From Candidatus Iainarchaeum sp. (GTDB taxonomy: Archaea > Iainarchaeota > Iainarchaeia > Iainarchaeales > DTGL01): DNA of 19,375 nucleotides. Position numbers: made by a program. The stretch lies in the NCBI GenBank assembly GCA_038886995.1, contig JAWALG010000022.1, positions 1 to 19,375 on the forward strand, in the 5' to 3' direction. This document shows, one piece after another, positions 1-3,000 of this stretch (positions are counted from its first letter, which is position 1; every line of letters begins with the position of its first letter).

Positions 1-3000
1 TAACCCTTTCCAGGTGTGCGCGGTCTCTTATGCTTAAGTCAAAAACAACTCTTATCACATTTTGAGAATCGATTTTAATTTCACTCTTAAGAACCTTTAC
101 CTTATTCTTTTCAAATTCTCTAAACAAGTCACTGAGGATATCAGCCCTTTTGAAAGCCCAGGCCTCCATTCTAACAGCATAGCCGCCCCTTTTCAGCAGA
201 TCTTGTCTTACCGAAAATATCTTCTTATGTGATAGGTTTGGCAGTATCGTACAATCAGTTCTATGTACTGTAATCTCCCCCCCTTTTGTTTCATAAGCTA
301 CAATGTCGTCTCCGGGCAGAGGTGTGCAACACTTTGCAAGAATTATCTTTTCAATTTTCTTTGGACTAACAACCATCTTCTTTAACTTATTTGATTTAAT
401 TCCAAACTCTTTCCTTATGGCCAATTTTGCTTTTTGAGTTTTCACAAATTTTAACCATTCAGGTCTAACCGTCTTCGTCTTGCTTAAAATAATTTTTACA
501 GTGTCACCACTGCTTAGTCGATATTTGCCCGACCTTTTAACACCGTTTACTAGCCCATACTTAAACTTATTTCCCAGATCTGTATGTATAGAATATGCGA
601 AATCCAGGACTGTGGCTTTTTTAGGCAGCAGAAGCACATCTTTCTTGGGTGTAAGTACAAAAATAAAATCGCCAGTGATTGAAAACTTTACATAGTCAAA
701 AAGGTCTTTGGCTAGGTTCTGCTGAAGCTCCACCAATTGCCTTGCCAATGATAAGGCCGCATCGAACCCACTATATTGATACCACTTCTTATAACGCCAG
801 TGTGCTGCAACCCCATATTCTGCTTCTCTGTGCATTTCAATTGTTCTTATTTGTATTTCTACAGGCAGGCCATCTATTTTTGCAACCAAGTGTATTGATC
901 TGTATTTATTATCTTTTGGGTTAACAATGTAATCCTCAACCCTGCCAACCAGTTCAAAAGAATCGATAATTGCACTAAAAGCCTTGTAACACTCCCTTAT
1001 TGAACCACATATAACTCTGATGCCAACCAGATCCATTATTTCTTCAACGCTTCTACCTTCTTCTTGACACTTTCTGTATGTGCTGTACACGCTTTTAACT
1101 CGGCCTTGTACTGCAAAAGTTATGCCTTCACGATCTAATAGTTCCTTTATAGCCCCCTTTGCTTTTTTGATGAAATCTTCTGCATTTGGGACCTTTTTAT
1201 ACATTTTTGCCTTAGTGCTTTTGTACTCTTTTGGCGAAATAATAGCCATTGCCAGATCTTGTAACTCTGAACTTACTTCAACAAGGCCGAGCCTTTGTGC
1301 TATCTTTGAGTGTATTTCGAGGGCAATTTTTGCCTCGGTTAACACAGCTTTGCTCTTTTTCTTTTTAATATGCCTCATATAATCTAGCTGTGAAAGTATC
1401 TCAACTATGATGCCCCTCACATCCTTTGATGAAGCCAAAAGTATTTTTGCTAAGCTTTCGCTGCTAAGGTGCCCAATATTTCTTCTCTTTATATCGCCAA
1501 TCTTTGCAGACTCTTTAACTATTTCTATTGTTTTTTCGTCGACTGATGCAAGGGGGCTTTGTTCAGTTAGCTCGTGTAACAAGCAGGCCGCGACCGTTCT
1601 TTGATCAAATCTGAGCTCAAGTGCTATATTTGCAGTTCTCAACTGATGACAAAATTTTTTTTCATCAGAAAAATTTTTGGCAAATCTAAAAGCTTTTATT
1701 ATATTTTTACAGCCATCTTTATCAAAAATATTTTGTAAAGTCCCGACAAAGAGCTTGCTTTCTAGTTCACAACCCACAAAGAAATTCTGCTAAATAGTTA
1801 ATAAAAAAAGATATTCGGCATGCATAACTAATTTTGGCGCTATTCTTAAAAACCCAAATAAACAATAATCTATTGTGGGCTAGGCTGGGGAGCTAGCGGT
1901 TCCCTGTACCGGAAATCCGCTTTATGCCGGGCCGAAGTTCCGGGGGAGGCTTTAGGCCGAAGGCAAAGCCACAGCAGAACTTTGATGCTTTGCCCCCACC
2001 GGCTTCACTTTATGGTGAACCCGCTAGGCCCGGAAGGGAGCAACGGTAGCCACACTGTGAAGTGCTGTGGGATCTCAGAGCGGAGGTATGCTGTGGGCCA
2101 ACTTTGCTTTTGGTCTTTTGCCAACTCCGGAGCGCGCCCACTTAAAGCATTTAAATACGTTGTCCTTTTCTGTATTTCATTTTAGAACTTTTTAACGCTT
2201 CTTTCTGCAGTACACTAAGCGCATCTTCTAGCGCAGTCAGGAGATTCCAAGATTCTGAAGAAGCATTGAATGAAAATTTTCCTGATGTTACCTTTGCCTT
2301 TACTAAATGCCTTGCCCTCATACCTTTTTTTCTCTGTGATTTGAAATGTATTGAAAGCATTACGTCTGCAGGCAGCAACCTTTCAAGTTTCTCGTACGCT
2401 GCTTTTATTCTTGTTTTCGCCTTTTCTTCATCCAAACTGCTTAGCGCAGGCATGCCTGATATTTGAATCTTTAAATAAGGCCTTTCCTCATACAATGTTG
2501 CTTTTAACACATCTTTCGTTGTAACAATTCCCCTAATCTTTTTTGCTTCTATTAGTAAGATGCTCTTGTCAGAGACAATCTCTTCCTTTGCTGCTTTCAA
2601 AGTATCTGAAGGTCGGAATGTTTTTGCTTCTTCCATAAGTTCCTGAATCTTCACACCCAAGATTTTTTTTGCTTCTGGTTCTTTGCCACTCAAGGAAAAA
2701 AGGCCTGTTTTTTTTGGTGAATGTATGAAATATTTTTCTATAAGGCCACTCAATGTTACCACGCCACAGTAGTTGCCAACATCATCAACTATTGGTATCT
2801 GCTTTACATTCATTTTTCTCATAATTGCTAAGGCTTTCGCTATGGTATCGTCCTTTCTTGCCTCGAAAGTTTCTGAACATATGCTCTCAAGTTTCGTCTT
2901 TGCGACTCTTTCATCTTCAAGTGCGTTGGAAAGAACATCTTTTATATGCACAAAACCAATGATCTTGCCGGAGCTCATTACTGGCAAAAGCCTTGCACCT

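Follow-up and report, generated by a model that had tools for sequence, protein, structure and literature searches.

An archaeal signal recognition particle (SRP) RNA without helix 6 is encoded in the window, meaning the whole stretch of DNA analysed (19,375 nt of contig JAWALG010000022.1, assembly GCA_038886995.1, Candidatus Iainarchaeum sp.), and SRP19 was not detected in the genome that carries it. The RNA was quite likely inherited vertically within archaea, helix 6 having been lost together with SRP19, a condition common to the five DPANN phyla sampled.

The SRP RNA gene and its fold

An earlier note had described a 271-nt SRP RNA keeping the Alu domain and helix 8 and lacking helix 6, and the alignment bore this out. 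The Rfam model RF01857 matched positions 1873-2143 of the forward strand over model positions 1-317 with 147.1 bits (gathering cut-off, 96.5), leaving 0 nt at the 40 model positions of the helix-6 block. The features assigned are listed below.

1846..1852, + strand: TATA-like box, putative archaeal promoter, about 27 nt upstream of the SRP RNA (sequence inspection)
1873..2143, + strand: SRP RNA gene of the archaeal large type, 271 nt, without helix 6 (RF01857, 147.1 bits; fold z -6.26)
1873..1935, + strand: Alu domain, with the 5' strand of helix 1 and helices 2-4 (RF01857 alignment)
1895-1899 with 1917-1921, + strand: Alu loop-loop pairing (alignment, covariation)
1905-1907, + strand: UGU U-turn of the Alu domain (RF01857 alignment)
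1936..2008, + strand: 5' strand of helix 5 (RF01857 alignment, consensus fold)
1983-1985, + strand: conserved UGA internal loop of helix 5
2008..2009, + strand: junction lacking helix 6 (38-40 nt in Euryarchaeota), with helix 5 leading directly into helix 8
2009..2054, + strand: helix 8, the SRP54 site (RF01857 alignment, MFE fold)
2017-2020, + strand: asymmetric loop of helix 8
2025-2028 / 2039-2042, + strand: symmetric loop of helix 8
2032-2035, + strand: GGAA tetraloop of helix 8
2055..2143, + strand: 3' strand of helix 5 (5e region) and of helix 1 (RF01857 alignment, fold, consensus)
2165..2195, + strand: T-rich stretch downstream of the SRP RNA, possible archaeal terminator (inference from sequence)

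The minimum free energy (MFE) fold of this RNA (-137 kcal/mol; z -6.3, a value reached by 0 of 200 shuffles) is a single long rod capped by helix 8, and no side arm is formed. Helices 1-4, the turn and the loop-loop pairing were all found in the Alu domain, the turn reading UGUAC, so that its fifth letter departs from the R of UGUNR. Helix 8 has both its symmetric and asymmetric loops and a tetraloop of the GRRA type (GGAA). Helix 6 with a GNAR tetraloop, expected of an archaeal SRP RNA, was not found.

The consensus fold of 57 DPANN RNAs contained 81 pairs, in 77 of which both sides had changed, and the passage from helix 5 to helix 8 formed a continuous consensus helix with 89.9% of its cells paired. 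Pairing between the Alu loops was preserved in 98.9% of cells, and each of its five pairs had changed on both sides. Upstream of the gene, a loose TATA pattern was detected in 29 of 30 Iainarchaeota SRP RNA loci, a count made in AT-rich DNA without a shuffle control. In the source genome the SRP RNA is flanked by a RelA/SpoT gene on one side and a CBS-domain gene on the other.

Helix 6 across DPANN and the probable direction of its change

RF01857 was matched in 139 of 151 Iainarchaeota, 54 of 61 Altiarchaeota, 124 of 131 Nanoarchaeota and 109 of 111 Aenigmatarchaeota genomes, as well as in 29 of the 31 genomes of a small sister phylum whose centre is labelled Micrarchaeota by NCBI, and which presumably differs from Micrarchaeota proper because it is too small. 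The RNA sampling thus comprised five DPANN phyla, Micrarchaeota proper, Undinarchaeota and Hadarchaeota standing outside it. Among the 451 full-model DPANN RNAs counted from the phylum tables, only three had sequence at the helix-6 site, all those above 280 nt having been aligned and the unaligned ones, of 280 nt or less, judged on length. In a joint alignment, where a few genomes are counted twice, the helix-6 block was empty in 144 of 147 DPANN rows, whereas it held 38-40 nt in all 51 euryarchaeal rows. A further 45 long or borderline DPANN RNAs from outside that alignment, all aligned as well, had a spacer of 20-22 nt, with one exception of 63 nt (G808). The extension of the loss beyond Iainarchaeota, which had been proposed earlier, holds for Altiarchaeota, Nanoarchaeota, Aenigmatarchaeota, the 31-genome phylum and one published nanohaloarchaeal RNA. 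In the supplement of PMC10266531, this last RNA has 20 nt (counted by eye) between the same anchors, so helix 6 is absent there too, and an RNA of this layout is reported as highly transcribed.

The typical length was about 273 nt in DPANN, compared to about 312 nt for canonical archaeal SRP RNA. The statement that all RNAs of Iainarchaeota measure 269-282 nt proved incorrect, as two of 296 and 290 nt with a short stub at the helix-6 site and others of 225-268 nt were also found. The long DPANN RNAs were considered as possible carriers of a retained helix 6, an idea that was rejected because their extra sequence lies within helix 8, on its 3' side or in the Alu domain.

A pattern scan that accepted either layout, with or without helix 6, separated two groups by span. 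At least 80 loci were found in metagenomes, and among the matches listed 31 span 164-169 nt and 49 span 206-211 nt; at least 80 were also found in GTDB genomes, with 28 short, one intermediate and 51 long among the matches listed. The long named GTDB records among these were from Archaeoglobi, Methanobacteria, Methanococci, Hydrothermarchaeota and Thermoplasmata, and the short ones could be assigned to DPANN from their names or from trees. Short metagenomic SRP RNAs were also seen at loci L117 and L138.

Apparent exceptions outside DPANN were examined individually. In the Thermoplasmatota control RF01857 was matched in 95 of 101 genomes, with 92 RNAs of 304-333 nt and one partial match; the two short RNAs were truncated and had helix 6, as in G1109, where the end of the contig cuts the RNA. 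Seven short RNAs from records labelled Methanosarcinales were rejected as exceptions, since the SRP54s of these records group in a single clade, separate from those of the euryarchaeal controls. For one of the records, the phylum sample shares genomes with that of a Woesearchaeota centre and includes a second such record; the Methanosarcinales-labelled records fall in the Nanoarchaeota phylum. The short RNA of a bacterium-labelled record (L240) was not accepted as bacterial either, as it nests among Nanoarchaeota RNAs and the record is probably mis-binned.

The two Iainarchaeota with a stub (G097 and G132) qualify the idea of a paired loss throughout that phylum: helix 6 and SRP19 are indeed both absent, but 20 and 14 nt, respectively, complementary around UUCG, remain at the helix-6 site of these two. 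A junction signature (5' GG plus 3' AC) was present in 49 of 51 euryarchaeal rows vs. 3 of 147 DPANN rows; G097 and G132 account for two of those three and are the sole ones among the 44 Iainarchaeota rows, and the third DPANN row with both marks has no stub. The recognition of the stubs, in two genomes only, depends on complementarity and junction letters, because folding lends no support (the stub pairs have a probability of 0.04 in G097 and of about 0.3 in G132). An interpretation of the stubs as introns was discarded, since G097 has no fitting register and the register in G132 would excise a strand of helix 8. An intron-like insert of 43 nt occupies the helix-6 site in G808. Putative introns, seen as bulge-helix-bulge insertions, were also noted in SRP RNA genes of Aenigmatarchaeota and Nanoarchaeota. 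The permuted, circularised SRP RNA of Thermoproteus, likewise a change in the arrangement of an archaeal SRP RNA gene confined to one lineage, retains helix 6 and SRP19 according to passages of PMC4731332 and bears here only on these intron-like insertions.

The RNAs of both stub-bearers branch inside the Iainarchaeota RNA clade (support 96/89 and 99/85), where they diverge one after the other from a group of 36 stubless RNAs, with starred support. Their SRP54s are iainarchaeal, and the FtsZ encoded beside the G097 RNA had named top matches to Diapherotrites/Iainarchaeum or to an unassigned 'archaeon'. Another five RNAs of Iainarchaeota without a stub branch outside the two stub-bearers, though with weak support (65/85), so that either the complete loss occurred in parallel or the stubs were regained. 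The data favour the stubs as remnants, helix 6 having been lost via a stub stage and the loss completed in parallel; regrowth at a tolerant site is possible.

These stubs also bear on whether helix 6 was ever there. An unlikely alternative, though the one that survives best, is that a layout of Alu domain, helix 5 and helix 8 is ancestral and common to DPANN and Firmicutes-type bacteria, helix 6 and SRP19 being later gains of the ancestral lineage of Euryarchaeota, TACK and Asgard, with the archaeal root on or in DPANN. The distance from hinge to helix 8 agrees with it, being 45-47 nt in both DPANN and bacteria vs. 85-88 nt in Euryarchaeota, as does the fact that the state is common to all five phyla, the large-genome Altiarchaeota included; with a DPANN root, one gain and zero losses would be needed. 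However, two Iainarchaeota combine the euryarchaeal three-way-junction signature with a stub, so stepwise loss is favoured over primitive absence. In addition, the available part of PMC13473441 roots Archaea at or near Euryarchaeota and places SRP19 at that root (posterior 1, and 0.3 at the DPANN ancestor; Supplementary Data 25), a result that depends on its own root. Were helix 6 primitively absent, it would unite the other archaea with eukaryotes as an innovation acquired along with SRP19, each of the two stubs would be either a leftover from the first stage of this gain or a regrowth, and the RNA would serve as a structural marker of a DPANN root.

In line with a helix 6 that was lost, 11 of 129 motif-matched DPANN rows have UGAC as the tetraloop of helix 8, in which the A of the fourth position has been replaced; the euryarchaeal rows, chosen for GGAA, are unusable as a control for this figure. 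This A pairs with helix 6, and the tetraloop is GRRA across the 81 RNAs of the review, according to passages of PMC4605306.

SRP19 in DPANN genomes and the probable archaeal descent of the RNA

The absence of SRP19, claimed before for the source genome and its phylum, was confirmed: PF01922 gave no match over the cut-off in the source genome (88.6% complete; 0 of 1) or in 215 Iainarchaeota genomes, nor in the 61, 31, 401 and 301 genomes of four further DPANN phyla. The total is 0 of 1009 genomes from five phyla, free-living Altiarchaeota among them, in a prefiltered search from which Sulfolobus SRP19 escaped as a control; the four weak matches obtained each had internal stops. Fifty of the GTDB loci were also searched: every short archaeal locus (27), the single intermediate one, and 22 of the long loci chosen to span the taxa. 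None of the 28 genomes with a short or stub RNA had a match to SRP19 (0 of 27 without G236, an unpublished genome), compared to 19 of the 22 with helix 6.

It was considered whether an SRP19 too divergent for these searches is still present, or whether another protein has taken over helix 8. The escape of Sulfolobus SRP19 and the fact that most of the genomes are incomplete MAGs speak for such a protein, and the first of these points had been raised earlier as one that could overturn the finding. However, two unfiltered HMMs run on all six frames of the source genome gave best E values of 0.4 and 0.32 (best score, 10.5 bits), whereas a profile from 14 of the same SRP19 sequences recovered Sulfolobus SRP19 (3ktw) with an E value of 1.5e-6 and 31.8 bits. 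A 124-row profile, run without a positive control, found nothing in five genomes, of which four consist of 1-2 contigs and have a completeness of 94-99%. The helix-6 tetraloop, which is the binding site, is itself gone, and independent counts in the available part of Supplementary Data 25 of PMC13473441 give arCOG01217 as 0% in all 12 DPANN groups and Hadarchaeota and as 91-100% in the other seven groups. A hidden SRP19 or a substitute protein is thus very unlikely.

A search for a divergent SRP19 by rpS8e synteny revealed no SRP19-like ORF adjoining S8e in five genomes, but this test is weak, S8e lying within 1.5 kb of SRP19 in only one of eight control loci. No DPANN label occurred among the top hits in lists of named SRP19 homologues or in the ESM Atlas, the supplement text of PMC7414124 has no SRP19 row, and the expression table of the nanohaloarchaeon in PMC10266531 has only two entries named signal recognition particle, both GTPases. 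A blastn search against plasmids gave no match, and comparison of the SRP RNA with one read run gave only short pieces from other organisms.

The two remaining partners are encoded on contig C3 of the source genome, as had been stated: SRP54 (456 aa), which scores under the bacterial and the eukaryotic equivalog cut-offs alike, and FtsY (372 aa), which is above the TIGR00064 cut-off.

As for the RNA, the description of it as having the Bacillus layout is right for the architecture, given the 45-47 nt spacing, but wrong for the origin, because the sequence is archaeal. The RNA of the window scored 147 bits with RF01857 vs. 111 bits with RF01854, the model of bacterial large SRP RNA. Euryarchaeal HMMs from which helix 6 had been cut out outscored a bacterial HMM in 142-144 of 147 DPANN rows. 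For the window RNA the scores were 78 vs. 56 bits when L240 was dropped from the bacterial set, and nearly tied (79-82 vs. 77.5 bits) when it was kept. By region, both helix-5 strands were euryarchaeal-like in all five DPANN groups, and helix 8 was slightly bacterial-like in three groups, with L240 still in the bacterial set. Ten bacterial-type RNAs, so labelled from sequence features and clade and not from organism names, formed a clade of their own (support 100/99) in trees of about 270 columns with the deep order unresolved. Thus, the HMM, per-region and tree tests all came out archaeal and bacterial descent was not borne out.

Horizontal acquisition of a bacterial large SRP RNA in place of the archaeal gene would account for the RF01854 score (cut-off, 60 bits), for the Alu loop letters AGCGG/CCGC common to Iainarchaeota and bacterial large RNAs and for the bacterial-type RelA/SpoT gene adjoining in the window, but those letters covary freely across DPANN, the helix-5 strands, HMM scores and trees carry an archaeal signal, and the ftsZ neighbourhood is conserved in three phyla (many Iainarchaeota, Altiarchaeota and sister-phylum loci), and since the RNA outside helix 6 is archaeal in sequence such a transfer appears unlikely in the extreme.

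A predicted two-component particle and its significance

The SRP delivers membrane proteins, and its canonical archaeal form is the closest known system. Its RNA (RF01857) has the same helices 1-5 and 8, Alu loop-loop pseudoknot, UGU turn and 5e sequence, and its partners are the same archaeal SRP54 and FtsY; in contrast, it has helix 6, a GNAR tetraloop, the adenosine clamp between helices 6 and 8 and SRP19, whereas the DPANN RNA lacks these elements and SRP19 was not detected. In the canonical particle, two adenosines clamp helices 6 and 8 together, and SRP19 binds the tetraloops of both (passages of PMC2905702 and PMC4468861). The bacterial large SRP RNA (RF01854; Bacillus/Clostridium, with Ffh) has the same Alu domain and continuous helix 5-8 rod and one S-domain protein, as would the DPANN particle, but differs in that the helix-5 strands and Alu spacing of DPANN are archaeal, in its separate clade and in the lower score of its model.

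Under the reading of vertical inheritance with loss of helix 6, SRP19 would have been lost at or near the DPANN ancestor. With SRP19 gone, the distal, GNAR-capped half of helix 6 would have lacked a partner and eroded, and the leftover stub would then have been removed cleanly, probably more than once, two Iainarchaeota retaining it. As to function, a particle of RNA and SRP54 with a continuous helix 5-8 rod, by analogy with Bacillus, is the most likely outcome. With helix 6 gone, helix 8 would be a free continuation of helix 5 in one rod with bacterial spacing, and SRP54 would bind the helix-8 loops without need of pre-folding by SRP19. FtsY would serve as the receptor, and the conserved Alu domain would still fold. 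According to passages of PMC2905702, Haloferax can do without SRP19, and archaeal SRP54 binds the RNA in its absence; the SRP19 deletion mutant of Haloferax volcanii described there is likewise an archaeal SRP working without SRP19, but keeps helix 6 and a protein-free clamp to helix 8, whereas the DPANN RNA has no helix 6.

In bacteria, FtsY docks on the GNRA tetraloop. The same docking cannot hold in all DPANN, because UGAC loops are not GNRA.

The variant had been presented as unreported in DPANN, which stands for the RNA and not for SRP19, whose absence lay latent in a table published in 2026 (available part of Supplementary Data 25, PMC13473441), the main text of that paper leaving the SRP unmentioned. 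Full-text literature searches, with subscription journals, bioRxiv supplements and the end of PMC7203096 outside their scope and one listing covering the top 40 of 495 papers, returned no report of helix-6 loss in DPANN, and the RNA change, its pairing with the protein loss and the intermediates appear unreported in the literature searched. Passages of the reviews (PMC2905702, PMC4605306, PMC5807370) hold that all archaea and eukaryotes have SRP19, helix 6 and the clamp that joins it to helix 8. Contrary to these, a large share of archaeal diversity is without all three, and we regard this as a real, lineage-wide variant of a known particle.

Such a natural minimal archaeal SRP offers a way to ask what helix 6 and SRP19 do, and the living intermediates suggest the direction of change. 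The RNA is also a character independent of protein phylogenies, shared by Altiarchaeota, Iainarchaeota, Aenigmatarchaeota, Nanoarchaeota and one nanohaloarchaeon, the placement of two of these lineages being disputed. In its available passages, a recent preprint (bioRxiv 10.64898/2026.06.17.729505) places Altiarchaeota and Nanohaloarchaeota in DPANN by protein insertions and proposes a link to Hadarchaeota, with no mention of the SRP. Given their 0% SRP19 in the part of the PMC13473441 table available, Hadarchaeota may possibly share the RNA change and group with DPANN, and the SRP RNA trait would provide a direct test of that link.

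Putative introns in helix 8 of SRP RNA genes

The SRP54-binding helix 8 carried a disrupted motif in 11 RNAs, and these were assayed for bulge-helix-bulge registers, each consisting of a helix of 4 bp and a pair of bulges of 3 nt and cut after the second bulge base. In 10 of the 11, the canonical motif was restored by exactly one register. Judging from these sequences, helix 8 is probably interrupted by bulge-helix-bulge introns in 10 SRP RNA genes of Aenigmatarchaeota and Nanoarchaeota, at the following loci (L-numbers):

Aenigmatarchaeota, candidate introns: L466, L473, L474, L477, L454, L467, L484
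Nanoarchaeota, candidate introns: L441, L442, L443

The candidate inserts measured 16-46 nt and were found at four positions, and a stricter filter recovered 2 of 7. In one literature search for introns in SRP RNA genes, the permuted SRP RNA of Thermoproteus alone came up; its authors speculate on an ancestral intron form (PMC4731332).

Helix-6 stubs, and hairpins or inserts in other long RNAs

UUCG-containing stubs at the helix-6 site were detected in two Iainarchaeota SRP RNAs, both adjoining ftsZ:

L002:1501-1796 (-), SRP RNA with a 20-nt stub
L003:1501-1790 (-), SRP RNA with a 14-nt stub

Further long DPANN SRP RNAs had either hairpins of 27-43 nt located 3' of helix 8 or inserts in the Alu domain, of up to about 120 nt (L468, L469, L471, L478, L480, L481, L406; L470, L476, L479).

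Other genes in the window

2-1777 (-), long RelA/SpoT homologue with HD, synthetase, TGS and ACT domains, extending past the contig end
14542-16407 (+), rpS8e, then two archaeal pilin-like genes and more small ORFs

The RelA/SpoT homologue and the SRP RNA gene are divergently oriented; bacterial-type stringent-response enzymes have already been described from Diapherotrites. The neighbours of the S8e gene varied between the five genomes compared.

Taxonomic labels, unplaced RNAs and possible viral hairpins

Public records named 'uncultured Methanosarcinales' (L219, L220, L222, L242, L243, L248, L249) behaved like Nanoarchaeota, and a Nanoarchaeota-type SRP RNA was present in L240, a record labelled as bacterium. 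Two short metagenomic SRP RNAs of archaeal pattern (L117, L138) fell outside every sampled DPANN group. SRP19 is at 0% in Hadarchaeota, as it is in the DPANN groups, according to the arCOG01217 row of PMC13473441 Supplementary Data 25.

Small helix-8-like SRP hairpins were also detected on IMG/VR contigs (L042, L043, L057, L063, L064, L072, L073, L077, L079), several of them adjoining tRNA-like sequence, and these hairpins may be virus-encoded SRP-like RNAs.
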